Source: an uncultured Candidatus Rokubacteria bacterium
GTDB taxonomy: Bacteria > Methylomirabilota > Methylomirabilia > Rokubacteriales > DASRDR01
Assembly (NCBI GenBank): GCA_963708025.1
Contig: CAVPSB010000011.1
Span: 13,749 to 77,748 of the forward strand
Reading direction: 5' to 3'
Length of the DNA: 64,000 nt
Positions 14,101 to 63,266 of this stretch are shown piece after piece. The notes under the pieces were generated by a model, which saw only the letters and a program-made list of their open reading frames with translations, was not told where the DNA came from and did no database searches. The translations under genes and the position numbers were made by a program. The number at the start of each line of letters is the position of its first letter. Position 1 is the stretch's first letter.

Positions 14101-14156
14101 TACACTGTCTGGCGAGCTCCCGCGCCGGATCCACCCGAGCCTCCGGAGGTCGTCGC

Positions 14157-30890: not shown

Positions 30891-30906
30891 AGCAAGTGCA
30901 ATGCCA
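30891..30906 (-). promoter_or_regulatory. sigma54 promoter TGGCATTGCACTTGCT
   Basis: Near-consensus -24/-12, 57 bp upstream of the ATG at 30834. Confidence 0.72.
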
Positions 30907-41283: not shown

Positions 41284-41301
41284 CACCCTACCCTGGTGTC
41301 C

Positions 41302-41587
41302 CGGCCGTGGCCGAGAAGCGAGCAGCCCTAGGACGCAGGGAGTCGCCGACCGCAGGCGTACTCCGAGTACGCCGAGGATCGGCGACGACCCCAAAGGCCG
41401 AAGGCCGTCCGGAGGACGACGGAATGCGAAGCTTATGGCCCCTCGGGATCCTCGAAGGGCAACGGCCGCAGACCTGCGGGGGCAAGGTCGAGGAGCGAGA
41501 CGCCCACAGGCCGAAGGCCGTCCGAACGACGCAGGCCGAGCGCGTCCCGACCGAGATCGACGTTGCGAAGCTTATCGGCCACGGCCG
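41302..41587 (-). repeat. Structured intergenic repeat, copy 3 (internally duplicated; altered but still paired terminal stem)
   Basis: Terminal IR CGGCCGTGGCCGA.AAGC / GCTT.TCGGCCACGGCCG; identical GGCGTACTCGGAGTACGCC core. Confidence 0.85.
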
Positions 41588-42547: not shown

Positions 42548-42552
42548 CGGAG

Positions 42553-42583
42553 CGGGGCCCGGAGGTTCAGGCTCCGGGCCCCG
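42553..42583. other. Hairpin between SBP and permease genes (likely mRNA stabiliser)
   Basis: CGGGGCCCGGAG...CTCCGGGCCCCG, 12-bp stem. Confidence 0.55.
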
Positions 42584-42592
42584 GATGGATTC

Positions 42593-44389: not shown

Positions 44390-44393
44390 GGGC

Positions 44394-46205
44394 CTAGCCC
44401 TCTTTGTACCAGTAGGCGTGGTTGTAGAGGTTCGAGTCCCAGCCGCTGATGTCGGTGCCCCTCAGCCGGTTGGACACCGCCGAGATGACGCTCCGCCAGA
44501 GGACCGGGACGACGATCACGTTCTGGATGAGGAGGTCGTTCATGCGGATGAAGTTGGCGGCCCGCTTCACCGGGTCCATCTCGGTCTCGGCGGCCTTCCA
44601 GAGCCGGTCGTACTCCTCGTTGCGCCACCGCGTGATGTTGCGGCCGGCCCACTTGTTCTCCTTCGACGCGACCTCCCACGAGCAGAACTGCTCCATGAAC
44701 CGCTGGGGGTCCGGGTTGTTCATCGTCGTCGTGTACATCTGGATGTCGGTGTAGAAGTGGGGGTAGGTGTCCGGATTGCCCGCATCGGAGGCAAAGAAGA
44801 CCGACGACACCACCGACTTCAGCTCCATCTCGATCCCGGCCTTGGCCGCCGCCTGCTTCACGATGGCCTGGGTCTTCTGGCGGGGCGCGTTGATGGCGGT
44901 CTGGAAGACCATCTTGAGCCGCTTGCCGTCCTTGGCCCGGACGCCGTCGGCGCCCCGCTTCCAGCCGGCGTCGTCCAGGATCTTGTTGGCCTTCTCGACG
45001 TTGAACTCCCATTTGTTGTTCTTCGAGTTGAAGCGGGACGGGGCGTTCAGGAAGTTGGCCGTGCTCTGGCCGAGACGGCCGTAGATCTGCTCCTGGACCG
45101 ACGCGCGGTTGACGAGCAGATTCAACGCCGACCTCACCGCCGGGTCGGTCAGGAAGGGGTGGGATGCCTTCAGGCTCGAGCGCTCGCCGTCGATCTCCTT
45201 CCAGGGATCGGTCTGGTTGCACTGGATGTGCTCGATGTTGCCGGCCACGGCGATGTTGACCTTCCCCTTGCCGCCCTGCTCCATCCGGCGGAGGATGTCG
45301 TCTTCCACCTGCAGGTTCCAGGCGAAGTCGTACTCACCCGTCTGGATGACGGCGCGCGCCGCCGAGACCGCGTCCCCACCGCCCTTCAGCTCGAGCTGGT
45401 CGAAGAACGGCCAGTTCGGGACGTGGTAGCCGGGGTTCGCCTCGGCCCGGATCATGTCGCCCGGCTTGAACTCGACGAGCCGGTAGGGGCCGGTGCCGAT
45501 CGGCTTGAGGTTCGCCGGCGCCTCCCGGGACTTCGCCCCCTTGAACGGCTCGAAGACGTGCTTGGGGACGATCTGGCCGCCGGGGCCGCAGAAGGCGATC
45601 GGCCAGAACGGGGTGGGATTCTTGAAGACGACCTTGACCGTGTGGCTGTCCGGCTTGTCCACCCGGGCGATGTCCCGGTAGAAGCCGATCGTCCAGGCGG
45701 CGGTGGCGGGATCGACGGCGTACTCCCAGTTGAAGACCACGTCGTCGGCGGTGAACGGCTTCCCGTCGTGCCACGTCACGCCCCGCTTGAGCTTCCAGGT
45801 GACGGAGAGCCCGTCCTTCGCGACGGCGCCGTTCTGGAGGCTGGGGATCTCGGCGGCGAGATTCGGCACCAGGTTGCCGTCGGGGTCGAAGGAGGCCAGC
45901 GGCTCGTAGAAGACCCGGGAGCCGTCCTGGTCCTTCGTCCCGTTCGCGAAGTGGGGGTTCAGGAGCGTCGGGGCCTGCCACCAGAGGACCTTGAGCGGCC
46001 CGCCCATGCCGCGCCGGGTCGGGGTGAACGCCTTGGTCTGCGCCTGCGCCACGCCGCCGAGGCCGCCAATGCCCAACGATGCCAGCATCTGGCCGACCAT
46101 GGGCGCCGCCAGGCCGAGCCCGACCATCATCCGCGTGAAGTCGCGCCGGCTGACACGCCCGTCCTTCACGCGGCGAATCCAATCCCGAAGCTCGCGCTCA
46201 TCCAT
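44394..46205 (-). CDS. Peptide ABC SBP family 5 with Tat-like signal (tandem paralog)
   Basis: SRRDF; WHDGKPFTADDV; collinear with 42593-44389. Confidence 0.94.
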   Translation of the reverse strand: MDERELRDWIRRVKDGRVSRRDFTRMMVGLGLAAPMVGQMLASLGIGGLGGVAQAQTKAFTPTRRGMGGPLKVLWWQAPTLLNPHFANGTKDQDGSRVFYEPLASFDPDGNLVPNLAAEIPSLQNGAVAKDGLSVTWKLKRGVTWHDGKPFTADDVVFNWEYAVDPATAAWTIGFYRDIARVDKPDSHTVKVVFKNPTPFWPIAFCGPGGQIVPKHVFEPFKGAKSREAPANLKPIGTGPYRLVEFKPGDMIRAEANPGYHVPNWPFFDQLELKGGGDAVSAARAVIQTGEYDFAWNLQVEDDILRRMEQGGKGKVNIAVAGNIEHIQCNQTDPWKEIDGERSSLKASHPFLTDPAVRSALNLLVNRASVQEQIYGRLGQSTANFLNAPSRFNSKNNKWEFNVEKANKILDDAGWKRGADGVRAKDGKRLKMVFQTAINAPRQKTQAIVKQAAAKAGIEMELKSVVSSVFFASDAGNPDTYPHFYTDIQMYTTTMNNPDPQRFMEQFCSWEVASKENKWAGRNITRWRNEEYDRLWKAAETEMDPVKRAANFIRMNDLLIQNVIVVPVLWRSVISAVSNRLRGTDISGWDSNLYNHAYWYKEG

Positions 46206-46343
46206 GATCGCCCTCCTGAAATCAGAGGTTCGCGGACGGAATGGGCGGCCCACGGCCGGGAGCCGGCACGTGGCCCAGAAGCCAGGATTGGGGCGATCTT
46301 AGCTCCACGCCGCCCACCCGGTCAAGACGGCTGGACGCTCCTG

Positions 46344-46724
46344 TCAGTGGCCCCCGGCGCCTTCGTAACCGATCAGCAGGTGCTCGGTGACGAGGGCGAC
46401 GCCAGCACCCGGGCTGGCGCTCGCCCGATAGTACATGTACGGAATGCGAAGCGCCCTGGCAACGTAGCGCTCGGTGCCCCGAAAATACCACTCGCCCGGA
46501 TACTCCTGGCTCTGGGCCTCCTCGAGGCGCAGGCCGTACAGGATGTTGACCGGCACGCGGGGAAGCGCGACATTCGGGGGCACGACCGGCGCGGGAACCG
46601 GATCGGGAATCAGAGGCGGCACGCCGATCCAGTTCTGATTCACGGGTGGTCCCGGGAGTGGTACCGCCGCGTACGGATTCATCACGTAGACGTACGGGCC
46701 CAGATTCGCGACCGGAACGGGCAT
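46344..46724 (-). CDS. Pro/Tyr-rich hypothetical protein (126 aa)
   Basis: RBS GAGGGAGG; typical codon usage; no family recognised. Confidence 0.7.
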   Translation of the reverse strand: MPVPVANLGPYVYVMNPYAAVPLPGPPVNQNWIGVPPLIPDPVPAPVVPPNVALPRVPVNILYGLRLEEAQSQEYPGEWYFRGTERYVARALRIPYMYYRASASPGAGVALVTEHLLIGYEGAGGH

Positions 46725-46859
46725 GATGACCCTCCCTCTGGCGGCTAGGGGTCCGAGGCCACAGGGCGGGCGGCACTTGGTCGAGCCTGCGCATCGGCTC
46801 GCACAGGGCCGCTCCCTTTGTCAGAGGCGTTCGCGAGACCGAGCGGAGCCGGCCTCACC

Positions 46860-46979
46860 CTACTTCGTCGGCCTCTCCGTCCCTTCTTTCATGGCCTTCT
46901 GGAGGGCCGCCATCTCCGCATTCAACCGAGCGATCTGGTCCCTGATCGAGATCAACAACGGCACGATCTGATCGACCAT
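46860..46979 (-). CDS. 39-aa coiled-coil small protein
   Basis: RBS AAGGAGG; LISIRDQIARLNAEMAALQKAM heptad pattern. Confidence 0.6.
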   Translation of the reverse strand: MVDQIVPLLISIRDQIARLNAEMAALQKAMKEGTERPTK

Positions 46980-47120
46980 GGCTTCCTCCTTTGCACGATC
47001 GGGTTCTGCGCCAACAGGCCCCTCCGAGTCTATCGTCGGAGCGAGGAACGAAGCAAGGCCCACGCGGCTGCTCGCAAGCCCGTGCTCACGCGGGTTCCCG
47101 CGCGCCCGGTGGCCGGGCCG

Positions 47121-50100
47121 TCACGCGGACGGCGGGTCTTCCAGAGCGGCGAGGGCCGCTCGAACGCGCGGGGGTTCGTCCAGCGTCCCCAGTGTCTCGA
47201 AGAGCGCAAGGGCGTGCTCGAGGAGCACTCGCGCGCCCGCAGCGTCGCCGCCCACGTGGCACAGCTGGGCCTGGGCCACCCACGCCTTGGCCAGCTCGTC
47301 TCGGGCGCCCATGGTCTCGAGGATGCCCACCGCCCCCGCCAGGTGCACCGTCGCCGCCGCCCGATCCTCCAGCATCAGGATCTCGCCGAGCAGGCGCTCG
47401 GCCACGCCCTCCAGAAACCTATAGCCGCCTTCACGGCTCTTGTCGAGAACCTCCTCGAAGCAGGCCCGGGCTCGCTCGCGGTCGCCCAGCCGCAGGTATC
47501 CCTCGCCCAGCCGGATCACGAACGACCACCGCGTGTAGTGCAGCCGCGAGCGCTCGAACCAGGCGACCGCCTCGCCGAGCCCCGTGGTCCCGGCGGCGGC
47601 GTCTCCGCCCTTGACGAGCCCGTACCCTCTCATGGCTCCGACCATGGCAGCATCGAAGGGGATCGGCGAGGAGGGCCAGGGCTTCCTCACAATACCGGAG
47701 CCCGGTCGTCGGGTCGCCCCGAAGGATGTGCGTCGAGCCGGTGCGCCACAAGCCCACAACCTTCAGACGGAGGTCGTTGACCGCCTGGCCATGATCGAGA
47801 GCACGGCGGCAGTAGTCCAAGGCACGCGCCCATTCGCCGAGGGCGTTGGCGGCGGTGCTCAGGACCCACAGCGTCCGGCAAGCCCACCACACGTCGCCAC
47901 GGGCCTCGAAGCTCGCGAGGGCGCGCTCGCCGACGTCCACGGCGTCTCGCAGATCGCCCGCCAGTCCGTACACGTGGGCGAGGCAACAGTCGGCGAACCC
48001 GCGGATGTCGTCGAGGCCGGCCGCATCGGCCAGCGCGGAAGCCTCGCGGCAATAGCCGATGGCGACCTCCGGGCGGGCGCCGGTCAGGCTGTGGAGGAAG
48101 CCCGTCCAGTAGTACCAGGCGGCCCGGCGCCGGGGATCCGGGCAGCCCTCGACCAGGTCCCGGATGCCCTCCAGCGCGCGAATGTGGTCCGCGTGCTCCC
48201 CCAGCGCGAACTTGACCTCCGCCTGCTTGACGACCGCGTCGATGCGTCGGAGCCGGTTCGCCTCGCCGTCCGGCATCCCGGCCAGGCGCTCGAGCGCCAC
48301 GTCGAAGTGGGCCAGCGCCTGCGTGTTGGCCCACCGCCGCTGGGCCTTCTGGGCGGCGAGGATCGCGTAGTCGACCGCCTTCTCGTCCTCGCCGCTCTGC
48401 CGGTAGTGGTGCGCGAGCAGCTCGACGATCTCGTCGATCCGGCCCGCGTACTGCTGTTCGAGCACCGCCCCCACGGCCGCGTGGTAGCGCCGGCGATCCG
48501 GCTCGAGGAGGGTCGCGTAGGCCACCTCCCGGGTCAGCGTGTGCTTGAAGACGTGGGCGGGCTCATCGAGCCCCATCTGCTCGACCAGGAACTCGTGCCG
48601 GGTCAGATCCCGGAGCCCGGCGGCGAGGTCACCGGGTCCGTCCCAGATCCCCGCCAGGAGCCGGAGCGGCACGTCCGGCCCGAGCACGGAGGCCGTCTGC
48701 AGCAGCCGCCGCAGCGGATCGGGCAGCCGGTCGATGCGCCCGAGGATGAGCTCCTGGATGGTGTCCGGGACCGCGGCGGCCACCTCCGGGTCCGCCTGCT
48801 CGCCAACGCTCCGGGCCAGCTCCTCGAGAAAGAACGGGTTCCCCTGCGCCTTGGCCACGATGCGCTCGGTCAGCTCGGGCGACAGCTCCCGCGCCCTCAG
48901 GGACGACCGGACCACCGCCAGGCTCTCCTCGGCCGAGAGCGGTCGCAGCACGACCTGCGTCGCGTACGAGCGCTCCATCCAGGCGGGACGGTATCCCGGC
49001 CGGTAGGTGGCGATGCACATGATCGACGCCCGCCCGAAGCTCTCCACGAGCGAGGCGACGTATTCCTCCGACGTCCGGTCGATCCAGTGCAGGTCCTCGA
49101 CCACCATGATCAGCGGGCGCGCGAGACTCGCCCTCAGGCTCATCTGCCGGATGGTCTCGAAGGTCCGGGCGTTGATCACCTCCGGGCTCAGCGCATCGAG
49201 CGCGAGCCGTCCCCTCCTTCACACCCAGCAGGTGGAGGAGGCAGGGCGCCGACCCCTCGTCCTCCATGCCCAGCTGCGAGAGCGCCGTGCCGACCTTCGT
49301 CCGGATCACCTCGGGGGTGTCGGTGTCGAGGATCGCGCAGCTGTCCCGGACCAGATCGAGCAGCGGCAGGTAGGGCATGGTCGTTCCGTAGGAGACGCAG
49401 TAACCCTCGAGGTACGTGACCCGCTGGTCGGCGAGGCTCTGGCGGAACTCCAGGAGGAGCCGGGACTTCCCGATGCCAGCCTCGCCGACGATCGCCACCA
49501 CCTGGCCCTGCCCGCGCGCGGCCGACGTGAAAACGCCCCGGAGCAGCTCCAGCTCGTGCTGCCGCCCGACGAACCGGGCCATCCGCCGCTTCAGGCCGGC
49601 GCGGTCGAGCTTCCCGAGTCGGTAGCCCCGGCCGGTGGTCCCGGTCAGCGGCGCCGGGGAGAGCTCGAAGCGACGCTCCAGCAGCCGCGCCGCCGGCTCG
49701 CTGACCAGGATGGTCCCCGGCTCGGCGCCGGCCAGGAGGGCGTCGAGGACGAGCCATGCCGGTCGCTTGGCGTCCTGATCGATCTCGACCCGTGTGCCCA
49801 GCCGCCCGAGCAGGAACGGGCCGGCGTGGATCGCCGCCTTGACCGCGAACGGCGCGGCCAGCCCGTCCCACTGGCGCGCGGCCGCTCTCTGGATCGCCAG
49901 CGCGGCGTGGGCGGCCCGCGTGGGCGCGCCTTCCACGGGCTCCAGCCCGAACGCGGCGACGATGCCGTTGAGTCCCAGCTCCACCAGGCGACCGCCGAAG
50001 GTCTGGACCTTTTCCACCACCAGGGCGAGCGGCCGACTCCGATCGGCATCCCCCGGGTCCTCGCCCGGCGACAGGAGCACCGCCCGCAGCAGCGTGACAC

Positions 50101-51216
50101 GGCGGCGCTCCCACCGGACGACCGCCGCCGACGGGACCGGGGGCGGCGGCACGGTCACCGGCGCGACGGCCAGGGGCACGGCGGGCGCCGGCGCGGGAGG
50201 CGGCGGGCCCGGGCGCGCCGCCCTGCGGGGACGAGGCGCGCCGCCACCCTCCGGCCGGAGCTCGTGCTTCTCGATCCGGTACCGCAGCGTGTTGCGGGGA
50301 ACGCCGAGGAGCGCGGCGGCGCGCGAGATGTTCCAGCCGGTCTGCGCGAGCGCCTCGAGGAGACGCTCGCGCTCGACGCTCCCGACGGCTTCCTCGAGCG
50401 GCAGCCGCGGGGCCGGCGGCCCGGCCGCCGGCCCCCGTCGCGCGCCGGCAGCCCGAGGGTCTCGGCGGTCACCTCCGCCGCCTCCGAGAGCAGCGCGACC
50501 CGCTCCATCACGTTGGCCAGCTCCCGCACGTTGCCCGGCCAGCCGTAGGCCGTCAGCGCCCGCCGGGCGTCCTCCAGCAGGCGCTTCGGCGGCAGCTCGT
50601 AGTCGGCGCAGGCGCGGGCCAGGTAGTGCTCGGCGAGGAGGACGATGTCCGACCCGCGCTCGCGCAGGGGCGGCAGCCACAGGGTGAGCACCGCCAGCCG
50701 GTGGTAGAGGTCCTCCCGGAAGCGCCGCTCCCGCGTCGCCGTGGTCAGGTTCTCGCTGGTGGCCGTCAGGATCCAGACGTCGACCGGCTCGCTGCGAGTG
50801 CTCCCCAGACGCCGCACCTCGCGCTCCTCGATCACCTTGAGGAGCTTGCTCTGGAGCGCCTCGGGTAGGAGGCCGACCTCGTCGAGAAAGATCGTGCCGT
50901 GGTGCGCCGCCTGGAAGAGGCCGCGCTTGGCGTGGCGCGCGTCGGTGAACGCGCCGCGCTCGAAGCCGAACATCTCGGCCTCGAGCAGCGTGGCGGGGAT
51001 GGCGGCGCAGTTGACGTCCACGAAGGGGCCGCTCGCCCGGGGACCGGCCCCGTGCAGCGCGCGCGCGACGAGCCCCTTGCCGGTGCCGGTCTCGCCCTGG
51101 AGGAGGATCGGGGGCAGCCGGCGGGTCTCGGACTGGCGCTGGAGCAACCGCCCGATCGTCTCCCGGATCGCGGCGATCCCCGGGCTCTCCCCGATCAGCT
51201 CGCTCAGGGGCTTCAT
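47121..51216 (-). CDS. sigma54 enhancer-binding protein fused to Fis-HTH, degenerate class III cyclase, STAND-like AAA ATPase and TPR region; frameshifts near 50430, 49200 and 47680
   Basis: GETGTGKG, DVNCAAIP, GAFTDA, FLDEV, WPGNVREL, WNISRAAALLG..RNTLRYR; GEAGIGKSRL, VEDLHWID, GNPFFLEEL. Confidence 0.9.
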
Positions 51217-51335
51217 GGACCGGTTCCTCATCTTACTCCGCCGGCCACTGTCGAAGCTGCCGAAGATTCGGCATCGTCACTGTCGAACGGCGCTGGTGCG
51301 ACGGCTAACTACCCGGATTATAAAGCGTCTGGTCG

Positions 51336-51351
51336 TGGCACCCCGATTGCG
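51336..51351 (+). promoter_or_regulatory. sigma54 promoter TGGCACCCCGATTGCG, divergent from the activator
   Basis: Consensus TGGCAC-N5-TTGC; AT-rich patch upstream. Confidence 0.8.
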
Positions 51352-51381
51352 ACCCTCCAGAGCATGGCCAAGAGAGACGGC

Positions 51382-51932
51382 ATGAGTGAAGCGAAGCGAC
51401 GGTGGGTGAACGCGCTCGTTCTCGCCGCCGCGGTCGTGATCGGGCTGGCGGCCACCTCGGACGCCGGCCCGCAAGGCGCGACCCGGATCGGCGAGGTCCC
51501 CTGGCTCGCGCATCTCCGGGTCGTCGAGGCAGCCCTGGTCCGCGGGGACCTCGGCGGTGCCGAGCGGGCCTGGCAGGAGGCGTACCTGGCCGCGCTCGGA
51601 AGCTGGCGGTGGGACGGGCATGCTGGAGGTCGCGCACGCCTACCTCCGGATCGGAGCAGGCAGCCGGCCGGCAGCAGGCCTCGGCGGCCCGCGCCCGCAA
51701 CCTCTACCTGGCGGCGCTCTTCCGCGCCCGGGAGCAGCGATCGCTCGACGGCGTGCTGCGCACGGTGGAGGCCTTCGCCCGGCTCGGGGACCGCGACATG
51801 GTCGAGCAGTGCCTGCGGATCGCGGAGGCGCTCGCCGCCGAGGCGCGCGACCCCCACGCGCCCGCTCGCATCCGCGCGTTCACGATTCGGCTCGCGGACC
51901 CGACGTTCGCCACCCGAGACGCCGGGCGCTGA
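51382..51932 (+). CDS. Exported alpha-helical (TPR-like) hypothetical protein; frameshifts near 51615-51665
   Basis: Signal/TM WVNALVLAAAVVIGLAA; AERAWQEAYLAAL..WDGMLEVAHAYLRIG..ARNLYLAALFRAR..SLDGVLR. Confidence 0.75.
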
Positions 51933-52044
51933 GCCTCGCCGGGAGAACCGGACCATGGCTAGGAGTCGACGCCGTGCCCGATGCGCGGGTCGAACTGCGC
52001 CAGCGATCGCTGGATCGTGTCCGACTCTGCAATAGACTTGCCTA

Positions 52045-52072
52045 TTGACACGACTCGGACCGCTGTCATACT
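52045..52072 (+). promoter_or_regulatory. sigma70-type promoter TTGACA-N16-CATACT with TG extension
   Basis: Consensus -35, TGn extended -10. Confidence 0.55.
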
Positions 52073-52446
52073 CACGTTGTTCCGAGTGGGAGCAGACATC
52101 GGAGGGGCTCTGACGTCCGACTCCCACGTCCCGTCGCGGCGGTACGTCGCCGCTAACGGCCCGCAGAGCTGACCCGGCCTGCGGCGCGCCAGTCGGGTCG
52201 AAGACCCGACCGAGCCATCGGAGGGTGACGCGGTGGATTGCCTCGCCGGCGAGGCACGTGCCTCTGAAGTGCTCGAACATCTGTCCGATCCCGGACAACC
52301 GTAGTGGGTCGGCGACTATGGTGATGGCGTGATGGCCTACCGCCAGCACTTTCGAGCTCCATCGACCGGTCTCGGCTCCCGGCCCGTGCTCGGGATGGGA
52401 GATCGTTGGACACGGAGGGCATGCGATGAGCGGTCGGTTCAGATGA

Positions 52447-53278
52447 GTGAGTGGCGGTAGCCAAATGCCCGCGGAGCGGAGGCGAGCATGGGGAAAGAGC
52501 GTCTGGGTCGCGGTCCTGGCCGGCGTCGTCGCGCTGACCGCTACCCCCGCTCGACCACAGGCCCCGGGCGAGATCGAGACCCTCAAGCGCGAGATCGACG
52601 CCCTGAAGGCCGGGCAGCAGTCCCTCCGGAAGGAGCTGTCCGACATCAAGGAGCTCCTCCGCGGTCGCCAGCCGGCGACGAAGGAGTTCCAGCCGATTCG
52701 CCTCCGCGTGGCAGGCTATCCGGCCAAGGGCGAGCCAGGCGCGCGCCTGACGGTCGTCGAATTCTCGGACTACGAGTGTCCCTTCTGTGCGCGCCACTTC
52801 CGCCAGACGCTGCCCACGCTCGAGGACGAGTACGTCAGGACCGGGAAGGTGCGGTACGTGTTCCGGAACTTCCCGCTCGAGGCGATCCACAAGAAAGCGT
52901 TCCGGGCGGCAGAGGCCGCGCTCTGCGCCGGCGAGCAGGGGAAGTACTGGGAGATGCACAACCGGCTCTTCGCCAACCAGGGGATACTCGAGGACCTTGC
53001 CGGCCATGGCCAGGCCGTTGACCTGGAGCCGACCGGCTTCGCGGCCTGCCTCGGGAGCGGTCGGTCATGCCGCGCTCATCCGGCAGGACCTCTCGGATGG
53101 CCAGCTCGCCGGGATCCGCGGTACGCCGGCGTTCTTCATCGGGCTGACGGATCCGACGGGAGAGACCTTCCTGGCCACCAAGGCCATCACCGGCGCCGTT
53201 CCCTACGGGGCGTTCAAGGAAACCCTGGATGCGCTTCTCGCGGATGCAGAGCGGGGCGACCCTCGGGCGGCCCGCTAG
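52447..53278 (+). CDS. DsbA/thioredoxin-fold disulfide oxidoreductase with N-terminal coiled coil; frameshift near 53070
   Basis: Signal peptide; VEFSDYECPFC, NFPL..IH, QGKYWEMH, GIRGTPAFFI. Confidence 0.9.
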
Positions 53279-53318
53279 GGTCATCGTCATGGCTGTCAGT
53301 AAACGAGGGAGGTGAGCG

Positions 53319-55984
53319 ATGGGCAGTACGCACGTTCTGAGGTGGGGTGTTCTGGGGCTCGTGGTCATGCTGGCGGTGGCCGGGATCGCCCCATCGGCCG
53401 ATGCTGTCGTCGGGGGCACGCTCTTGACCGTCAACATTCCCTCGGCCGCCCAGTGTGGAGGCAGCAGCGGGAGCGCGGTGGCGGTCGTGCCGGGCGGGAA
53501 GCTCAACTTCCCCAAGTTCCATAGCCTGCTGGTGACGAGCTGCATCCAGAGCGGCCAGGTCAAGCTGTTCTTCCTGGATCCGTCGACCGATCCGGCTGCG
53601 CTGGTCTCGACCCTCAACACGATTTTGCCGACGGGGGTTACGCTGGACGCCGGCTGGGAATCGCTGGCGCTGCGTTCCGACAAGGTTGACCTCATCGGCT
53701 GCGGGATGGTGGGGGGCACGCCGAAGGTCTACTCGATCGACTTCAACCAGATCACCCCCAACACCACCGTTGACGGGACGGCTACCCTGCTCTTCACCGG
53801 ACCCGCCGGGTCGACTTGCCAAGGGCTCGCATGGGACGTCACCAGTAACCCGAAGACCATCTATCAGAGCTCCTCGGGAGCGTCGCCGAACGTCCTCCAC
53901 CTCTCGGACGCTGGGGCCTCCATCGCCGGGAGCGTTCCTTCGGGCTGCGCAGGTCCCATGACCGGGGTGGCGGTCGGCGTGGTCAGCGCGGAGACGCCGG
54001 CGTTCTCCGGCTCGGTCCTGTTCGTCGCCTGTCCGGCGGACGATTTCACGCCTGAGATCCGCCAGATCAAGAGAGCCGACGGCGCCCTGGTGACCTCGGT
54101 CGAGGTCCCCACCGGCTCCTTCGCGCTCCCGACTGACCAGCCCGGGGACATCGAGTGCGACCCTGTGACCTTCGCCGTGTCGCAGAGCTGGCATCCCACC
54201 ATCAGGAACAAGGACGTGCTGTGGGTCAAGGATACGGATCCCCTTAACCCACACCAGGTGCATGCGATGGAGCTGCCGTTTGCCGCGTGCGGGCCGGTGG
54301 CGCCTCCGCCGACTCCTGCCGTGAACGCGTGCCCGACCGGCGACCAGGACACCGATGGCGACGGCCTCCCGGACTGCTGGGAGGATGGCACGTACTGGGC
54401 CGATAGCCTTCCCGGAATCGCCCTCGACGGGAAATATATCGGGGGGCGGGCGGACACGTCCCAGCGCTTCACGCTGTGCGTGGATACGAACGGCGTCAAC
54501 GGGTTCGAGCCGGCCCTCGGCGAGTGCGCCACCCCGCTCAACCGGGACATCTTCGCCGAGATCGACTACATGGAGTTCCACCGGCCCAACCCGCAAGCCG
54601 TGAGCGATGTGGTCGCCGCCTTCTCGACCGCTCCCGCGTTCGCGGCGGGTTCCGGGAAGTGTGACGGGGCTGGCTGCACGCCTGGCGTCCGGCTGCACGT
54701 TCAGGTCGACGAGCAGATTTCGCACGTGAACAACACCGCGTTGTTCCCCTGCACGGGGCCGAAGGGGGTAAGCGACGCCGACTTCGACACGACCAAGACC
54801 GCGAAAGTTCGGGACCACTACCGACCGCGCCTCCGCCAGCGTGCTCAACGCGAAGCGTCTTGCCTTCCATTACGGGCTCTTCGTCCACAACCAGTCTCCG
54901 ACCCCGCCCGCGACCACCAACTCGTCTTCGGGGTGCGCCGAGCTGTTCGGCAACGACTTCATGGTGTCGATGGGGAGCTGGACGCCACCGAACCCCGCGA
55001 TCGCCGGTCACACCGGAGGCGTGGGGAGCCGATCCGAGCAGGCGGGGACCTTCATGCACGAGCTCGGGCACAACCTGGGCCTGCGCCACGGCGGCGTCGA
55101 CAACGTCAACTGCAAGCCGCACCACGTGAGCGTGATGAACTACGTGTACCAGTTCCCCAACTCCGTCCCCGACCGTCCGCTGAACTACTCGCCGTTGCTC
55201 GGAGTGGCGGCGCCGCTCACGTGCAACATCGCGAACCCCCCGGGAGCGCCGCTCGGCCTCAACGAGGCCTGTCTTGTCGAGTCGCTCGGCGTGGGGACCA
55301 GCTACACCGGCAAGATCGCCTTCGGCCCGCTGGTGGGAGTCCCGGCCAAGCCGACCGTCGTGGCGGTGTCGCCCAGTGTCCCGGCGATCAGCTGGAACAA
55401 GGACTCGGACTTGATCGACACGAACATTTCTCGCGACCTCACCGGCATGACCAGCACCGGCGGCGGCTGCCCGGCGTCAAGCACCAGGGAGTTCCTCGAG
55501 GGCTCCGACGACTGGGCGCTCCTCCAGCTCAACCTGCGGGCCTCGACGGACTTCGCCGACGGCGTCACCGCGAACTTCGATCCGTCCCTGGACAGCGGCA
55601 CCCAGGACATCACGGTGGAGTCCGCGCTCGAGCTGAGCGGCGACCTCATCGACATCAAGAAGAAGACCATCAGCGTGCATCAGCTCGGCGACCGTCGAGG
55701 TGTCGATCTTCAGTCGAGAGGGTGTGGATGCCACGACCCTCGATCCGCTCAGCGTGACACTGCGCGGCCTCCCTCCCGGCGCGGAGTGGGTCCTGTACGT
55801 GAGGCGGGGCGACGACTGCAAGGTGAAGGACGTGAACAAGGACGGCCTGCCGGACCTCGTCTGCAAGTTCGACTTTCAGACGGACACGCCGAGGACTCCC
55901 GGAAACCAGAAGGCCGTGCTGACGGGGACAACCTTCGACGAAACCTACGACTTCCACGGCTCGGACACCGTCCTCTTCAAATGA
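53319..55984 (+). CDS. Large secreted Cys-rich zinc metalloprotease (metzincin-type); frameshifts near 54810 and 55690
   Basis: Signal peptide; DTDGDGLPD; HELGHNLGLRH plus SVMNY Met-turn; C-terminal DVNKDGLPDL. Confidence 0.82.
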
Positions 55985-56036
55985 GGGAGACGAGCCGGCG
56001 CGGAGACCACCTCAAAACGCAGCGTAAGGAGGAGAC

Positions 56037-56495
56037 ATGATCAGGACACGGACGATTCACGCGGCAGTGTTGGCTCTCGCGCTCGCGGCCTCGGCGCCGA
56101 TCGCCCACGCGGGCGGTGGAGGCGCGGTGGAATCGCCCGGCACGGCTTCTTGTTCGAGTGCTACCTGATCAGCGGCGTCAACGCTCCGCAGGTAGCTCAC
56201 GATGGACGATCAGTTCGGCGAGCGGACCGGCGTGAAGCTCGGCAAGGCGAAGCTCCTCTGCACGCCCGCCGACGGGACGGTCGACGTCCGGACAGCTCCG
56301 ACACCGGGAGACTTCACGCCGGCCGACCACATCAAGTGCTACGACGCGCCGCCCAAGGGCGCCAACCCGAAGGTCACGGAAGTCGTCGTCGATCCGTTCG
56401 TCACGGAGACGGTGAAGGTGGGCGTGCCGCAGTTCGTCTGTGTCGAGGCCTTCAAGTGCCCGGTGGGGGAGGCCTGCCCGCCGCCCAGCGAGTGA
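56037..56495 (+). CDS. Secreted Cys-rich protein with an internal duplication (CY...D(Q/P)F...C); two frameshifts near 56143 and 56195
   Basis: RBS AAGGAGG; signal peptide; FECY..DQFG..KLLCTP and IKCY..DPF..QFVC. Confidence 0.7.
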
Positions 56496-57074
56496 GACTG
56501 TCCCGGCGGGCGCTGCTTCGCAGTAGCGCCCTCGTCCTCGGTGTCGAGCCGAGACGGAGTCCTGGGCCCGCTCTGGCGGCGGGTCCAGGACAGCACAGCC
56601 GGCGTCGTCGGCGAAGCCCATGCCGCGCCGCCGGCCTCCAGGCTCTCCGATCCCGAGCTGGAGGATCTGATCGCCTTCGCCGAGCTGCTGGTCGAGGGCC
56701 GGGCTCTGTCGCCAGTCGAGCGGGATTCTCTCGTCGAGAACATCGCGGAGCGCGTGGCGCGCGAGCAGGACTATCGCGAGCTGTACCGGACGACGGTCAA
56801 CCTCCTCCAGCGGCTGGCCGGCCGCCGCTTCTCGAGCCTCGACGTGGCCGCTCGAATCGAGCTCATCGCCCGCCATCGACTCGATTCCACCGACGTGCGG
56901 CCGGATGACGACCTCGGCCCCTTCGCCGACGACGTGCGCGCCGTGCGCACGCGCGCCCTGCGCGACCTGATCGCCGACTACTACAACTCGCCGGCGGGCT
57001 GGGCGGTGGTCGGCTACGACGTGTTCCCCGGGAGGTGCGGCGACCTCGGGCGGTACACGCGGCCGGAGTCCTAG
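56492..57074 (+). CDS. Gluconate 2-dehydrogenase subunit-3-like Tat carrier protein; frameshift near 56550
   Basis: LSRRALL twin-arginine; RFSSLDVAARIELI; YYNSPAGWAVVGY..PG. Confidence 0.8.
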
Positions 57075-57098
57075 CCTCGCGGAGGGCACGCGACCTCC

Positions 57099-58720
57099 GT
57101 GGATGCGGACGTCTGCATCGTCGGCGCGGGCGCGGCCGGGGGTATCCTGGCCTTCGAGCTGGCCCGGCGGGGCATCCGGGTCGTCGTGCTCGAAAGCGGT
57201 CCCCGGCATGACTTCGCGCGCCGCTCGGAATACGTGCGGCGCTATGTGCGGCACCAGGACCCGTGGCGAACCCCGCTCCTGGAGCTGGATCGCCATACGG
57301 TCGGGGGCCGGCACGCTTACAGGCTCGAGGGGAAGCGCGCCCGCGGCGTCGGCGGCAGCACCCTGCACTGGGAGGGTTACGCCCTTCGGCTCCATCCCAG
57401 CGACTTCCGGCTGCGGTCGCTCTACGGGATCGCCGACGACTGGCCGCTCTCGTACGCGGAGCTCGAGCCATACTACGCCAGGCGCCGAGCGGGCGCTCGG
57501 CGTCGCGGGCGCGATGGACGAGCCGTGGGGCTTGACGCGCAGCGAGCCGTTTCCGCTCCCGCCATTCCCGTTCAGCTACTCCGACGGGCTGTTCGCCCCG
57601 GCGTGCCGCCAGCTCGGCATCGCGCTCCATCACCTGCCGCAGGCGCGCAACTCCCAAGCCTACGGGGGCCGCCCGCAGTGCCGGCCTGCGGAACCTGCCA
57701 CGTCTGTCCCACCGGCGCCAAGGCCAGCGTGGACCTGACCCACGTCCCCGATGCCGAGGCCACCGGCAACGCGCGCATCGTCACGGACGCGACCGTCCTC
57801 AGGCTGGAGCTCGACCGATCGGGGGAGGTGAGCGCGGCCGTCTACGCGAGGCCGGACAAGGTCGAGCGGCGACTGACGGCCCGTGTGTTCGTTCTGGCGG
57901 GGGGCGCCATCGAGAACGCGCGGCTCCTCCTCCTGTCGGCGTCGCGGGGGTTTCCGACCGGGCTGGCGAACCGGAGCGGGCTGGTGGGGAAGTTCTTCAT
58001 GTCGCACCCGTCGATCGACGTGATCGGGCGTGCCCGCGAGAGGTGTATCCCTATCGCATCGGCTTCTCGACCGCCATGTCACGGCAGTTCGCGATCGAGC
58101 GCGACCGCGCGACCCGAGGGGCCTTCCTGCTCGAGTTCCTGAACTCGGCCGGGCCGACGCCCGAGCGGATCGCGGTCGCGAGCGGGCTCTCGGGGGAAGC
58201 CCTGCGCCAGCACGTCCGCGACGAGTTCGGCCGCTGGCTCGGGGATCCGCGTGTACTGCGAGCAGCTGCCGGACCGCGTCAACGCCGTGTCCCTCGCCCC
58301 CGGGTGAGGGACTACTTCGGCAGCCCCGCGCCGCACATTCACTGCAGCCTGGGCCCGTACGAGCAGAAGGCGCTCGACGACGCCAAGGACGTCGCGACCA
58401 AGATCCTGACGGCGATGGGTCTGAGTCAGATCCGGGCCACCGGCCTGACCTACGCGGGCCACCAGATCGGGACCCACCGGATGGGCACCGATCCTCGCAC
58501 GAGCGTGGTCGACGCCAATCTCACGAGCCACGACGTCCCGAACCTGTACCTCGTGGGCAGCGGGTGCTTCGTCACGGCCAGCGCCTCACCGCCCACCCTC
58601 ACCATCGCGGCGCTCGCCATCCGAGCGGCCGAGCACATCGCCGGGCTGCTGCGCCCCGGCGGCGGAGCGGAGTCGCCCGCTAACCCCGGTGTGGTGGGCG
58701 GGTACGACGCGAAGAGCTAG
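57099..58720 (+). CDS. GMC-family flavoprotein oxidoreductase; several frameshifts
   Basis: IVGAGAAG, GVGGSTLHW, DWPLSYAELEPYY, C..CGTCH.CPTGAK, AIENARLLL, HQIGTHRMG, PTLTIAALA. Confidence 0.9.
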
Positions 58721-61700
58721 GAAAGCGCGGCGCGGACAGCCTGCGTCGCGACGTGACCATCTAAGGTCCCCAGCGCCTGGAAGATCTCCTCGGCTTGCTC
58801 GAGCCACCGCCGCGCGCTCTCGACGTCGCCCGCCGTCCGGCACAGCTCGGCGCGCGTCACGAGGGCCTTGGCGACATCGTTGCGCGCGCCCATCGCCGCG
58901 AGTATTTCCATCCCACGCTCGAGATGAGCCAGCGCGGACGGGACGGCCGGCGCCAGGACCGCGCCGAGCAGGCGCTCGGCCACGCCTTCCAGGTGGCGAT
59001 AGCCGTTCTCGGCGCTCGCGGCCAGGATCTTCTCGAGCGTCGCCTCCGCCGCGTCGCGCTTCCCCCTTGAAGCTGGGCCTCGGCCAGCCAGAGCCCGAAG
59101 AGCGACCGGGTGTATCTCAGATTCGATCGTTCGAACCACGCCACCGCCTCCGCCAGCTCTCGAGTTCCGAGCTCGAGCTGGCCCGCCTTGACCAGACCGT
59201 ATCCCCGGACCGCCCTCACCATCGCGGCGTCGAAGGCGGCCGGGGAAAGGGCCATCGCCTCCTCGCAGCAGCGGAGCCCGGCTTCCACGTCGCCTTGCTG
59301 GATGTAGGTCGACCCCGTCCGCCACCAGCCGACCACCTTGAGCCGGAGGTCGTCGACCGCCCGGCCGTGATCGAGCGCGCGTCGGCAGTACTCCAGGCCG
59401 CGCTTCCAGTCGCCGAGCGCGTTGGCGACCGGGCTGAGGGCCCAGAGCGTCCGGCACGCCCACCAGATGTTCCCGCGCGCCTCGAAGGTCGCCGAGCGCG
59501 CTCTCGCCGGCCGCGACAGCACCGCGAAGATCGCCGGCTACGAGCAGGACATGCGCGAGGCAGCACTCCGCGAACGCGCGGAGCTCGTCGAGACCGTCGG
59601 CCTCGGCGATTGCCTGAGCCTCGCGGCAGTAGGCGATGGTGGTGTCGACGTGACCGCCAGTCAGGCTATGAAGGAACCCGGCCCAGTAGTACCAGGCGGC
59701 ACGGCGCGAGGGGTCGGCCACCGTGTCGACGAGGCCATGGATCTCCTCGAGGGCCTGGACGTGCTCGGCGTGCCGGCCGAGGGCGAACTTCACCTCGGCC
59801 TGCTTCACCACGGCGTCGATCCTGCGAAGCCGGTTGGGCTCGGTGTCGGGCATCGAGGCCAGGCGCTTGAGCGCTCCTTCGAACAGGGCCAGGGCCTCGG
59901 TGTTGGCCCAGCGGCGCTGCGCCTTTTCGGCGGCGAGGATGGCGTAGTCGACCGCCTTCTCGTCCTCCGCGCTGTGCTCGTAGTGGTAGGCGAGGATCTC
60001 GACGACGTCGTCGATCCGGCCCGCGTAGAGCTCCTCGAGGCCGCGCCCGGCCGCGGCGTGGAAGCGCCGCCGCCGGCGCTCGAGGAGGCTCGTGTAGACG
60101 ACGTCCTGCGTCAGCGCGTGCTTGAAGCTGTACATCAGCTCGGGGTCGTGCGCGCTCGGGAAGACGAAGTCGACGGCGTGGAGGTCCTTCAGGTCGCCCG
60201 CCACCAGCTCCCGCTCGGTCTCGCGGACATGGGACACCAGAGAGACACCGAAGCGGCGGCCGACGACCGAGGCCACCTGGAGCGTCCGCTTCGGCGACTC
60301 GGCCAGGCGGTCCACGCGGGCCGCGATGATGTCGCGGATCGTCTCCGGCACCGTCACGTCGGCCGCCCGCAGCCGCGCTTCGCCGTCCTCGACGACGATG
60401 CCCCCCGTCTCCTGCAGCTGGCGGACGATCTCCTCGACGTACAGCGGATTCCCCTCGCCCTTGGCCAGGAGGAGCTGGAAGAGCGACTCCGAGACCGAGC
60501 GACTGGCGCACAGAGCGTTCCACCATCTCCCTGATGTCGTCGTGGTCGAGCCCCTCCAGCTTGAGCCTCTCGGTCGCGCTGGGGAGCCAGTCCAGGGAGG
60601 CGCCCGGTCGCGTGGTGAGCACCAGCAACACCGCGTGCTCGTGCACGCGCGCCGCCAGCGATTTCAGCAGCTCCTCCGAGCTGGCGTCGATCCAGTGCAC
60701 GTTCTCGACGACGAGGATCACCGGCCTCAGCGCGCTCTCGCGGAAGATGACGGAGCCCAGGATCTCGTGCGTGCGGCTCCGGAGCTGGGCGCCCTGCACG
60801 CGCAGGAGGAACTCCGGCGGCACCGAGAGTCCCAGGAAGTGGTGAAGCAGGAAGGCAGGCTCCTCGCCCTCGACCCCGAGCGCCACGAGCCGCGCGGCGA
60901 TCCTCCGCCTCACGTCCTCCGGCGAGGTCTCCTCGGGGAGATCGAAGTATCGGCGGTACAGCTCGACCAGCGGACGGTACGCCATGGCGCGACCAAAGGA
61001 CGCGCAGGTCGTCTCGAGCTCCAGGTGTCCGCTTCCGTCCAGGCCCCGCAGGAACTCGTAGAGCAGGCGCGACTTGCCCACGCCCGGGTCGCCGGCGATG
61101 ACGACCACTCCTCCGAGACCGCCGGCGGCTCTTCCGGAACGCCTCGGCCAGCCGCTCCTGCTCCGCCGCACGCCCGATCAGGGGCGTCAGCCCGCGCTCC
61201 CTCGACACCTCCAGCCGGGTCCGCCCGCCGATCTCGCTCTTCACGGCGTAGGCACGCTGGGGCTCGGTCTTGCCCTTGACCTGGAAGTCGCCGAGGTCCT
61301 CGAACACGAAGAAGCCCTCGCAGAGATCCTTCGTGTGCCGGCTGGCCACGATCTGCCCCGGCTGCGCGACGTTCAGGAGCCGCGCGGCCAGGTTCACGGT
61401 GTCGCCGATCGCGGTGTAGTCCATCCGGAGATCGCGGCCGATGGCCCCGACCACGACGGGGCCGGTGTTGATGCCGATCCGCATGAGAAAGTCGCGTCCG
61501 TGCATCCGCTGGACGTCGGCCCGGAGCGGCGCGAGCTTCTCCTGGATGGCCAGCGCCGCCCGCAGGGCGCGGCCGGCGTGATCCTCGTGGGCGATCGGCG
61601 CGCCGAAGAGCGCCATCACGCCGTCGCCGAGGAACTGGTTGATCGTCCCCTCGTAGCCGTGGACCGACCGCCAGGATCACCTCGAAGGCGCGGTCCATGA

Positions 61701-62134
61701 TGGCGTGGACCTCCTCGGGATCGAGGCGCTCCGACATCGCGGTGAAGCCCGAGACGTCGGTGAACATGACCGTGACCTGCTTGCGCTCCCCCTCGACCGC
61801 GCGCCCTGGAGGTGAGGATCTTCTCGGCGAGGTGCCTGGGAGTGTAGCTCTCGGGCGACGCGAAGCGCTCCCCGGGCGGACGTGCCGGCGGTGACGCAGC
61901 CGGGAGCTGGCCCGGCGGGGCCGCGACCGAGGTGACGGCCGGCGTCGAGGCGGGCGGCGTGGGGGTGGCCCCGGACGCGCCCGCCCGCAAATTCGCTCCG
62001 CACTCGCCACAGAACTTGTTCAGGGAAGGATTGGGGGTGCGACAGGCCGGGCAGACCGCGACGAGGCGGGCCCCGCACTCGCCGCAGAACTTCTGCTCGT
62101 CGGGATTCTCGTGCTGGCACTGCTGGCACTGCAT
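58717..62134 (-). CDS. Double zinc ribbon - class III adenylate/guanylate cyclase - STAND-like AAA - TPR protein; several frameshifts
   Basis: CQQCQHEN..KFCGECG repeated; FTDVSGFT, QFLGDG, GDTVNLAARL; GDPGVGKSRL; GNPLYVEE. Confidence 0.9.
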
Positions 62135-62279
62135 CTCGGCTCGAACGCTCCCCCGGCGGACCCAATCACCTGCTTAGCGTATCTGGCCTATACTCCCCGC
62201 TATCCCCGCGCGTGTCAATGCGCCAATGCGGTCCGACCATACCACGCCTTGACGTGACGCGACGGCTCGGCAACCCGGG

Positions 62280-63266
62280 ATGACGGAGGCTTCCATGCAC
62301 ACCGACTGGGTCAGGAAGGGACAGCGGGCGGTCGTCGCCGCCTGCCTCGGACTCCTCGTCGCCGGCAGCGCCGAGGCGAAGACGCTCCGGCTCAACGTCG
62401 AGGCGGATCCCGCCACGCTGAGCCCGATCCAGAACTCGGAGCTGATCTCGGGCGACATCATCGACAACATGTACGAGGGGCTGACTGCCATCGACAAGGA
62501 CGGCAAGGTCGTGCCGGCGCTGGCCGAGCGCTGGCAGGCGCACGAGGACGGACGGGGCTTCCGCTTCTTCCTCCGCAAGGGCGTGAGGTTCCACAGCGGC
62601 CGGGAGCTGGGAGCCGCCGACGTGAAGTGGACGTAGGCGCTGGTGAAGGGGCTCTGCGGCGGCGCCGCCGTCGCTCTCTACGGCTCCATCACCCCCGGGG
62701 TCCCCGGCTTCAACCCGGAGGCCCCGAAGATCCCCTACGACCCCGAGCGCGCCCGGAAGCTGCTGGCCGAGGCCGGCTTCCCGGGCGGCAAGGGGCTGCC
62801 GCCCGTGGAGCTCCAGAGCACGGCCCTGAACAAGGACGAGCTGGCCTACCTCGCGAACCAGTTCAAGAAGGAGCTGGGGCTGGACGCGCGGGTCCAGATC
62901 GTGGAGCGCGGCACGTTCATCAAGGCCATGAACGAGGGCCAGGTGCCGTTCTTCTCCTGGGGCTGGACCGCCGACTACCCGGACGGCGCCTACTTCCTCT
63001 CGCAGATGTGGCACTCCCGGAGCAAGTGGAACCGGCCGCGCTACGCCAATCCGAAGTACGACGAGCTGATCGATCGGGCGATGACGGTCGCCGACAACGA
63101 GGCCCGCTACCGGCTCTACCACGAGGCCGAGCGGGTCCTCATCGAGGACGCCGCGATGGTCGCGCTCACCGTGCGCGTGCAGGTGGCGATCCGGAAGCCG
63201 AGCGTCGCCAACGTCTACCTGACCCCGTTCCGCTACCGGCCGTTCTCGGAGGTGCGGATCCAGTAG
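62280..63266 (+). pseudogene. ABC SBP family 5 with a large internal deletion and an in-frame TAG
   Basis: PALAERW..GVRFHSG..DVKWT* jumps directly to YDPERARKLLAEAG..GWTADYPD; the central GTGPF region is missing. Confidence 0.8.

Follow-up and report, generated by a model that had tools for sequence, protein, structure and literature searches.

The question raised by this locus is whether two neighboring receptor genes of an uncultured soil bacterium of the Rokubacteria form one signaling circuit or belong to two. The window, i.e. the whole 64-kb stretch of DNA that was analyzed, is the final part of contig C11 in an assembly of 8.17 Mb, 49 contigs, and 71% G+C (hereafter G000; other G numbers denote related genomes and L numbers the loci fetched). 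Near the end of this contig lie gene A (47121–51231, minus strand), which joins a sigma54 enhancer-binding ATPase to a STAND sensor, and gene B (58717–62134, minus strand), a zinc-ribbon cyclase on a STAND–TPR chassis, with genes for a small exported protein, a DsbA-like protein, a metalloprotease, and others on the opposite strand between them. The original prediction, made from the sequence alone, took A and B for twin receptors with a shared TPR sensor that couple cyclic-nucleotide synthesis to sigma54 transcription of the exported proteins enclosed by the pair. We find that the similarity between the two sensors is real, and that most of the evidence does not support an obligate circuit of twins built around effector genes under sigma54 control. 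We consider it probable that A and B belong to two separate signaling modules, which are neighbors only in G000, acquired their shared sensor by recombination, and are encoded by genes that are probably intact.

A and B share a closely related TPR sensor

When A and B are aligned, identity is highest in the TPR core (first 300 residues), at 71.5% (213/298), and falls to 46.2% (61/132) in the TPR tail, 35.8% (131/366) from the nucleotide-binding oligomerization domain (NOD) to the start of the TPR region, and 25.4% (47/185) in the cyclase-homology domain. All six peptide strings quoted in the original prediction are found in both genes. Its observation of strikingly alike C-terminal parts is in substance correct, and the greater divergence that it saw in the ATPase and N-terminal parts is borne out by the NOD and cyclase-domain values. 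The 71.5% between the two TPR cores compares with 70.6% between A and its own ortholog, and 68.6% between B and its own.

The NOD–TPR family is very large, with part of A matched in all 31 related genomes and 46 matches in G000. Within G000, A and B are mutual nearest paralogs: by tblastn, B is the best match of A (54.1% over 340 aa, and 74% over 81–82 aa), and the next-best paralogs of A's sensor region reach 41–43%. The TPR region is not equally similar among many paralogs, which would have spoken against the original prediction; the pairing of the two genes, however, is not conserved, as described below.

A tree of 48 NOD–TPR cores places A and B inside a clade of eight (SH-aLRT 99), which comprises four sigma54-type sequences (A and those of G002, G005, and G028) and four cyclase-type sequences (B, its G013 ortholog, and those of G011 and G028). 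At least 5–6 switches of output type are required by this whole-core tree. The TPR segment alone recovers the clade of eight with full support (100/100) and is star-like inside it, but the clade is missing from the NOD-segment tree, where B and its G013 ortholog stand alone on a long branch and A is found among other sigma54 types. Since the TPR grouping has no counterpart in the NOD tree, the phylogenies indicate that one TPR cassette was moved between chassis by recombination, before the examined relatives split. The idea of a shared TPR sensor on different outputs therefore stands. A and B may also have exchanged TPR sequence more recently by gene conversion, on which the star-like tree gives no verdict: approximately unbiased (AU) tests reject no grouping (P = 0.349 for B with its G013 ortholog, 0.134 for A with B, and 0.086 for the A orthologs together). 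Along its length, B is 93.5% identical to the G013 ortholog in the cyclase domain, 83% in the NOD, 68.6% in the TPR core, and 47.7% in the tail, which suggests that the sensor end of B has either evolved far faster than the rest or been replaced.

The two receptor genes are adjacent in one genome only

The sensor was found (E ≤ 1e-60), on either chassis, in 27 of the 183 genomes of the order, as a single copy in 21 and as two copies in six. In four to five of the six two-copy genomes, one open reading frame (ORF) is as long as a sigma54-type gene and the other as long as a cyclase-type gene; beside G000, such a pair with the sensor occurs in G028, G058, G088, and G158. The two copies lie on different contigs everywhere but in G000, which is the only one of the 183 genomes with A-type and B-type genes side by side. 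No A-type partner was seen in the ~35 kb fetched around B's G013 ortholog, and no B-type partner on the whole 37.5-kb contig of A's G005 ortholog; the G002 ortholog of A likewise has none, but its contig is only 7 kb long. The expectation that the pair and its cargo are conserved together is thus not borne out. As the two sensor copies co-occur in just 4–6 of the 27 genomes, a shared read-out would be optional.

Gene A faces a sigma54 promoter and a small exported protein gene

Gene A amounts to ~1367 aa when read through four overlapping stop-to-stop ORFs (50155–51276, 48629–51232, 47431–49218, and 47121–47762), which we read as four frame pieces. All of its features are on the minus strand, in the order sigma54 AAA+ domain, helix-turn-helix (HTH), dead cyclase domain, STAND, and TPR. 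The sigma54-interaction AAA+ domain and its lid (50443–51216) are matched by PF00158 at 5.4e-58 and AAA_lid_14 at 4.7e-21, with the PF00158 match spanning residues 13–184 of the first piece and profile positions 2–167 of 168. By motif reading, the domain contains the Walker A sequence GETGTGKG (51073–51096), the IFLDEVG motif, and the loop sequence GAFTDA (50938–50955). A Fis-type DNA-binding HTH_8 follows at 50273–50329 (3.3e-14). The usual arrangement in bacterial enhancer-binding proteins (bEBPs) is an N-terminal regulatory domain; here the AAA+ domain is at the extreme N-terminus without a preceding regulatory domain, and the regulatory region is C-terminal.

The cyclase-homology domain of A (49553–50122, placed by residue alignment) gives no Guanylate_cyc match at E ≤ 0.01 in Pfam. 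In all five sigma54-type sequences aligned, other residues stand at the two metal Asp positions and at the Asn/Arg pair, which marks the domain of A, by its residues, as a pseudo-cyclase. The STAND NOD (AAA_16, 4.9e-18), together with a helical region up to the TPR boundary, covers 48448–49486, with its Walker A (GEAGIGKS, 49463–49486) and Walker B (VVEDLHWID, 49078–49104) sequences recognized by motif reading. The TPR sensor occupies 47121–48447 according to the alignment and the TPR family matches, and its ~300-aa core begins at AGRIDEIVELLAHHY.

Single-frame orthologs of A are present in G005 (1390 aa) and G002; the small gene is kept beside the former, and the downstream solute-binding protein (SBP) gene beside the latter (85% identical). 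The sigma54–STAND architecture is common, with 3010 database matches (E ≤ 0.001); among the 120 matches listed, only two lack PF00158. The database names of these matches are sigma 54-interacting transcriptional regulators of Candidatus Rokubacteria/Methylomirabilota. Our literature searches found no paper on a STAND module controlling a sigma54 enhancer-binding ATPase, nor on these Rokubacteria families. The gene for sigma54 itself, rpoN, is found on contig C10 of the same genome.

Facing gene A on the plus strand is a palindromic element (51249–51288) with 12-nt arms that are 83% complementary, which reads CTGTCGAAnCTGCCGAAnnTTCGnCA with a second one, CTGTCGAA. Conserved between the corresponding genes of G005 as well, it lies ~60–85 bp upstream of the −24 box and makes a candidate enhancer of A. 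The sigma54 promoter TGGCAC-N5-TTGC (51336–51350, plus strand) ends 13 nt before the ATG at 51365 of a gene for a small exported helical protein (51365–51932, plus strand), which is frameshifted near 51616. Of 22 sigma54–STAND genes, 12 have the same strict −24/−12 motif pointing away from them and one has it co-directional with the gene, and the first ORF behind it belongs to the small-protein family in six of the 11 loci examined. Members of this family are ~173–183 aa long, and share the motifs WRWDGM and FRARQQ.S..G.LR, and the target protein itself has a signal or anchor sequence; neither Pfam nor wider family searches gave a family match, and the Atlas clusters of the small protein are confined to Methylomirabilota/Rokubacteria. 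An intact relative, the ortholog, adjoins A's ortholog in G005, and other members adjoin sigma54–STAND genes of another sensor clade in G016, G011, G010, and G018. A sigma54 target gene had been predicted between A and B; with a promoter 13 nt before its ATG, a conserved motif, and a palindrome, the small gene is a credible sigma54 target of A on these sequence features.

Several observations concern related loci. In L044–L047 (from G011, G010, G016, and G018), the other-clade sigma54–STAND genes stand opposite the small target gene, which is doubled in tandem in G010, G016, and G018, and beyond it lie arrays of 3–4 tandem SBP_bac_5 genes with permeases; the SBP genes are ~70% identical to the window SBP gene at 44394–46298. 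L113 holds a sigma54-type gene of the same sensor clade as A, with an AAA+ domain 67% identical to that of A, and there a cyclase-domain gene, on the opposite strand upstream, takes the place of the small helical protein, with a sigma54 motif at 1335. In the window, two more sigma54 consensus matches with one mismatch each are found at 26236–26251 and 30891–30906, both on the minus strand. SBP genes are also present here: two SBP_bac_5-type genes and two permease genes come after A, and another SBP and permease lie opposite B.

Gene B is linked to genes for secreted enzymes

Gene B amounts to ~1134 aa when read through. It is spread over six stop-to-stop ORFs, read as seven frame pieces, and encodes on the minus strand a double zinc ribbon (61988–62134; DZR, 2e-12), a class III cyclase domain (61149–61788; Guanylate_cyc, split over two frame pieces with 1.2e-18 and 5e-4), a STAND NOD with helical region (60025–61093; AAA_16, 2.5e-16), and a TPR sensor (58717–60024), which begins at AGRIDDVVEILAYHY according to the alignment. 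The NOD has the Walker A sequence GDPGVGKS (61070–61093) and the Walker B sequence VVENVHWID (60686–60712), again from motif reading. The domain content originally read by eye for the two genes (Sigma54_activat, HTH_8, AAA_16, TPR, DZR, and Guanylate_cyc) is confirmed by Pfam. The motifs FTD, GDG, and NLAAR of the cyclase domain are retained and align with those of other zinc-ribbon cyclases; we take them to supply the two metal Asp residues and the Asn/Arg pair. The predicted contrast between a pseudo-cyclase and an active one is in keeping with this alignment, in which the residues are replaced in A and kept in B. The intact B ortholog in G013 (L019) has 1158 aa, and the B-like genes in L098 and L100 encode 1120 and 1123 aa.

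The genes between the small gene and B are all on the plus strand. After a gap of ~530 bp, in which lies a sigma70-like promoter (52045–52072; TTGACA-16-CATACT, its second hexamer preceded by TG; one found vs 0.2 expected from shuffles), comes a gene for a DsbA-like thioredoxin-fold protein with CPFC and an N-terminal anchor (52465–53278; break near 53040–53090). Next are a secreted zincin metalloprotease with a signal peptide, HELGH, and HELGHNLGLRHGG (53319–55984; breaks near 54810 and 55700), whose N-terminal part has only two remote archaeal matches of ~30% identity among species-representative genomes, and a DUF7450-like Cys-containing protein (56196–56495), of which only ~99 aa are in frame and whose N-terminal half was not found in frame in the window. 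The set ends with a partner protein of ~177–195 aa (56541–57074), which is always encoded before the GMC gene and has no family match in profile searches, and a GMC flavin oxidoreductase (57099–58720; breaks near 57483, 57684, and 58039), whose stop overlaps that of the convergent gene B. The enclosed genes announced in the original prediction are thus present as far as the small gene and the DsbA-like, metalloprotease, DUF7450, and GMC genes are concerned, although four of them are frameshifted, and the product of 56541–57074 is not the Cys-rich protein that was expected.

L098 has the full set of cargo genes intact (protease 875, DsbA-like 276, GMC 555, partner 195, and DUF7450 215 aa), the GMC ortholog of G013 is also intact (531 aa), and in G013 the partner and GMC genes lie 6 kb from B's ortholog. 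A metagenome scan with the NOD–TPR piece of B yielded 269 confirmed relatives, and among the best 80 of them (52–79% identity) 75 B-like genes are in one frame, judged by eye. Where 3 kb or more downstream of the gene is available, 15 of 22 loci have GMC, partner, or protease genes, and where 5 kb or more is available, 10 of 14 have all three, in arrangements that vary between convergent and co-directional and in several gene orders. No A-type gene was seen beside any B-like gene in these 80 loci, and the small gene is absent by tblastn from all 80, including 33 with at least 1.5 kb upstream. Given this conserved linkage in metagenome loci and the sigma70-like promoter of its own, the cargo operon belongs with B and not with A, and nothing in the comparison links it to sigma54. 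The proposal that sigma54 transcribes the whole exported operon is therefore not supported.

Among the 40 B-like loci with at least 450 nt upstream, 14 have a strict divergent sigma54 promoter 165–234 nt upstream of the B-like gene (L059, L064, L069, L075, L077, L085, L099, L100, L101, L106, L108, L110, L123, and L129). In 12 of the 14, a lone cyclase-domain protein of ~246 aa is encoded behind it, and in L100 a PAS histidine kinase and a REC–sigma54 regulator lie just past the cyclase-domain gene. This divergent element is missing from the window. In L098, the gene at the head of the DUF7450/partner/GMC/DsbA/protease cluster (12441–14969, minus strand) encodes 842 aa that combine a MalT-like NOD with a SARP/BTAD domain.

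Frame breaks in the stretch from A to B

Neither A nor B is one open frame, and the third-position G+C signal switches frame at the same places. The breaks were placed by tblastn with intact G000 paralogs and then by DNA alignment to single-frame orthologs. Gene A (minus strand) has a net shift in a low-complexity Gly/Pro/Arg linker (50404–50445), one extra base relative to both orthologs at 49198–49206 (~49202), and one extra base by a CCCC run at 47663–47672 (~47667). In gene B (minus strand), the ortholog alignment shows one extra base each at 61803, 61665, 61133, 60519, and 59491, and one base missing at 59067. Break 61665 is inside the cyclase domain and 61803 just upstream of it, so the coding of this domain is not uninterrupted; homologous metagenome contigs are also one base shorter at 61667 and 61802. 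The original prediction had treated A and B as continuous genes, which three and six breaks contradict, and the motifs that it quoted come from different frames. At least seven further breaks are in the intervening genes (one in the small gene, one in the DsbA-like gene, two in the protease gene, and three in the GMC gene), giving at least 16 single-base breaks over ~16 kb in at least six adjacent genes.

The nature of these breaks argues for consensus errors. Each of the nine in A and B shifts the frame by a net single base, seven of them in the manner of an insertion; no nonsense codon is found in the 7.5 kb of A and B, and protein identity to orthologs across the breaks is still 79–93%. Spontaneous bacterial indels, on the other hand, are usually deletion-biased and varied in size. 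For these reasons, the breaks are likely errors of the consensus, and real decay is a doubtful explanation of them. The assembly is not uniformly poor, as its rpoB, of 1339 aa, is in a single open frame. Intact SBP and permease genes lie at 40354–46298; one of them, aligned as a control, has no single-base indel within the coding part.

Breaks of this kind are not restricted to C11. Chained tblastn of STAND, cyclase, and sigma54 homologs revealed 80 further breaks outside this contig, 62 insertion-like and 18 deletion-like, which are clustered in some gene copies while others are clean. The clusters are on C20 (~43–47.6 kb), C18 (~459–465 and 113–114.5 kb), C13 (~119–121 and 523–528 kb), C25 (~245–246 and 289.5–290.3 kb), and C37 (~56–57 kb). 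At eight of 21 paralog anchor points elsewhere in G000 there is no long open frame. The G000 assembly seems to contain either patches of poor consensus or many dead paralogs. Frame-split genes are also seen at the G018 and G016 loci, which likewise come from few-contig assemblies. A frame-switch caller based on third-position G+C counted 169 insertion-like and 82 deletion-like events, a weak hint only, as it recovered one of the nine known breaks in A and B. ORFs were flagged where the coding-like signal ends at least 240 nt before the stop codon, which applies to 1294 of 9271 (14%) in the genome and to 25 of the 98 ORFs of C11; in the relatives' loci it applies to 14 of 125. Low coverage at the contig end as a general cause of the breaks was rejected, since contig ends are not enriched in flagged ORFs.

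Two public metagenome runs contain 0.09 and 0.06 of the sampled words, and their contigs are mostly homologs. Near-identical read contigs at 47770–48172 and 48830–49091 reach no frame break; a 96%-alike read contig at 49123–49631 has one gap, and one at 60407–61213 is two bases shorter than the window. On the plus strand beyond B, the SBP_bac_5 gene at 62253–63266 matches profile positions 1–43 and then 230–366, an internal deletion of ~190 residues, with a TAG (62634–62636) on the deletion junction and a permease gene next to it at 63295. The reading frames of the stretch from A to B cannot be trusted without reads. More generally, the locus is a caution that frame-broken metagenome patches can be translated through by eye unnoticed.

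Proposed mechanism and alternative readings

The probable arrangement is one of two modules. Module 1 would consist of A facing the palindrome and the sigma54 promoter that drives the small exported helical protein, and module 2 of B with the convergent DsbA-like, zinc protease, DUF7450, partner, and GMC genes. In either receptor, a cytoplasmic ligand would bind the TPR arm, upon which the STAND ATPase would switch and oligomerize and gather the N-terminal output domains. The outcome in A would be a sigma54 AAA+ ring formed at the enhancer; the cyclase domains of B would dimerize and make cyclic nucleotide. The dead cyclase domain of A is more likely a dimerizing spacer, as the residues of both half-sites are replaced. 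With TPR cores ~72% identical, A and B may respond in parallel to one ligand or to two similar ones, rather than as an obligate pair.

A number of points weigh against this arrangement of two modules with intact genes. Some concern the state of the genes: the stretch 46252–62252 has 12 flagged ORFs, the most of all 1878 segments of 16 kb (the runner-up has nine); contig ends have a mean of 2.18 flagged ORFs (60 ends) vs 2.36 in the interior (408); rpoB and many paralogs are clean; the ~190-aa deletion with a junction TAG in the neighboring SBP gene is unexplained by consensus error; and the read set of the source assembly was searched for and not found. Others concern the modules themselves. 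The loop that contacts sigma54 in bEBPs has the canonical sequence GAFTGA, and A and its G005 ortholog have GAFTDA there; ligand, oligomerization, and activation by proximity are drawn from MalT-type STAND proteins, bEBP hexamers, and class III dimers, and would apply here by analogy; the TPR core of either gene resembles that of the other as closely as that of its own ortholog; and the adjacency could still be functional, with both types kept in 4–5 other genomes.

The alternative that survives best, although we regard it as unlikely, is that A, B, and the intervening genes are true pseudogenes of a decaying genomic island, with no working system. It is kept alive by the deleted SBP gene and by the sharply local patch, in which breaks hit adjacent genes at the highest density of flagged ORFs in the genome-wide ranking, and the anchor points without a long frame and the clustering of breaks in some gene copies are also in its favor. 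The form of the breaks tells against it: single-base changes, mostly insertion-like where deletions would be usual, no nonsense codon in A and B, a codon-position G+C signal and 79–93% identity to the G013 ortholog that persist across the breaks, and an insertion bias that is assembly-wide (62 vs 18).

It is improbable, in our estimate, that one ligand is read twice, via an exchangeable TPR cassette on two STAND chassis that act through a sigma54 ring and a cyclase dimer. If true, one cue would be answered by both transcription for an exported protein and a pulse of cyclic nucleotide, and the cue might be a peptide imported by the adjacent multi-SBP importers.

More doubtful still is the obligate pair, or hetero-oligomer, in which A and B, sensing one signal together, would tie the making of cyclic nucleotide to transcription of the enclosed operon by sigma54. 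The likeness of the TPR cores, the mutual nearest-paralog relation, the combination of a pseudo-cyclase in A with an active-looking cyclase in B, the four other genomes with one ORF of each length, and the divergent sigma54 promoter beside B-like genes in 14 of 40 loci would all fit such a pair. Yet the two genes are adjacent only in G000, and 21 of the 27 sensor-bearing genomes have a single copy. The NODs, which would mediate co-oligomerization, are just 36% identical and fall in different clades. The catalytic site of class III cyclases needs residues of both half-sites of the dimer, and a mixed A–B dimer would have no complete active site; the productive heterodimer of active and pseudo-cyclase domains that had been envisaged is therefore unlikely, as judged from the residues missing in A. 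The sigma54 promoter, finally, precedes the small gene only, with the ~530-bp gap and the sigma70-like promoter before the DsbA-like gene, and the cargo accompanies B-like genes that have no A-type gene.

Least probable is a peptide-signaling circuit, in which TPR sensors would bind imported peptides as in RRNPP systems, supplied by Opp-like multi-SBP importers and derived from the sigma54-driven small exported protein or from products of the secreted protease: the SBP_bac_5 arrays and permeases adjoining sigma54–STAND loci in G010, G011, G016, and G018, the SBP and permease genes flanking A and B, the signal or anchor of the small protein, and the secreted protease and DsbA-like protein in the interval agree with it, but the small protein is conserved over its full ~175 aa with a folded-helical look, unlike a pro-peptide, its gene does not accompany B-like genes in the metagenome loci, and the SBP linkage is one of neighborhood only.

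Comparison with known systems and implications

The chassis of A and B resembles that of MalT/LAL/AfsR-type STAND activators, in which an AAA_16 NOD with Walker A and B sequences is followed by a TPR sensor, and the effector is presumably activated by ligand-driven oligomerization, as we infer for A and B. The effectors differ: those of A and B are N-terminal, either a sigma54 AAA+ domain with Fis HTH or a class III cyclase, whereas those of MalT/LAL/AfsR are LuxR or SARP DNA-binding domains acting on sigma70 promoters. A MalT/SARP-like STAND regulator of this kind is carried by the L098 cluster. PspF, a bEBP without an N-terminal regulatory domain, is controlled in trans by PspA. Gene A is like such bEBPs in its N-terminal Sigma54_activat domain, Fis HTH, divergent sigma54 promoter, and upstream palindrome, but differs from PspF in the ~1000 residues (dead cyclase domain, STAND, and TPR) that follow its HTH.

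For the chassis of B, the nearest studied relatives are the Rv0386-type cyclases. The mycobacterial proteins Rv0386, Rv1358, and Rv2488c consist of a class III cyclase, an NB-ARC-like ATPase, TPR, and HTH. B shares with them an N-terminal cyclase, a STAND ATPase, and TPR, but lacks a C-terminal HTH and starts with a double zinc ribbon. Among curated models, TIGR03903 (TOMM kinase/cyclase fusion, NCBIfam) comes closest; it aligns to the cyclase domain, NOD, and TPR, with 325 bits over residues 433–1331 of an A ortholog and 335 bits over residues 90–1069 of a B-like protein. Both scores are far under the cut-off of 705.75, and the match starts at profile position 280–333, past the kinase; a kinase domain is absent from both proteins, and no genes for TOMM or other ribosomally synthesized and post-translationally modified peptides (RiPPs) were seen nearby.

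STAND/NLR-type switches drive sigma70-type activators, cell-death effectors, and defense enzymes. What the locus offers is an uncharacterized kind of sigma54 activator, presumably STAND-switched, with its putative target, and a cyclase-type sibling with a conserved neighborhood of secreted enzymes. As a compact test system, in which an activator and its candidate enhancer stand next to a promoter with just one small target gene, it could show how bEBPs that lack an N-terminal regulator are turned on. The conserved linkage of a cyclase-type receptor with a secreted protease and GMC oxidoreductase is a second, previously undescribed lead, and a sensor cassette that moves between transcription and cyclic-nucleotide chassis would offer a route to the ligand.

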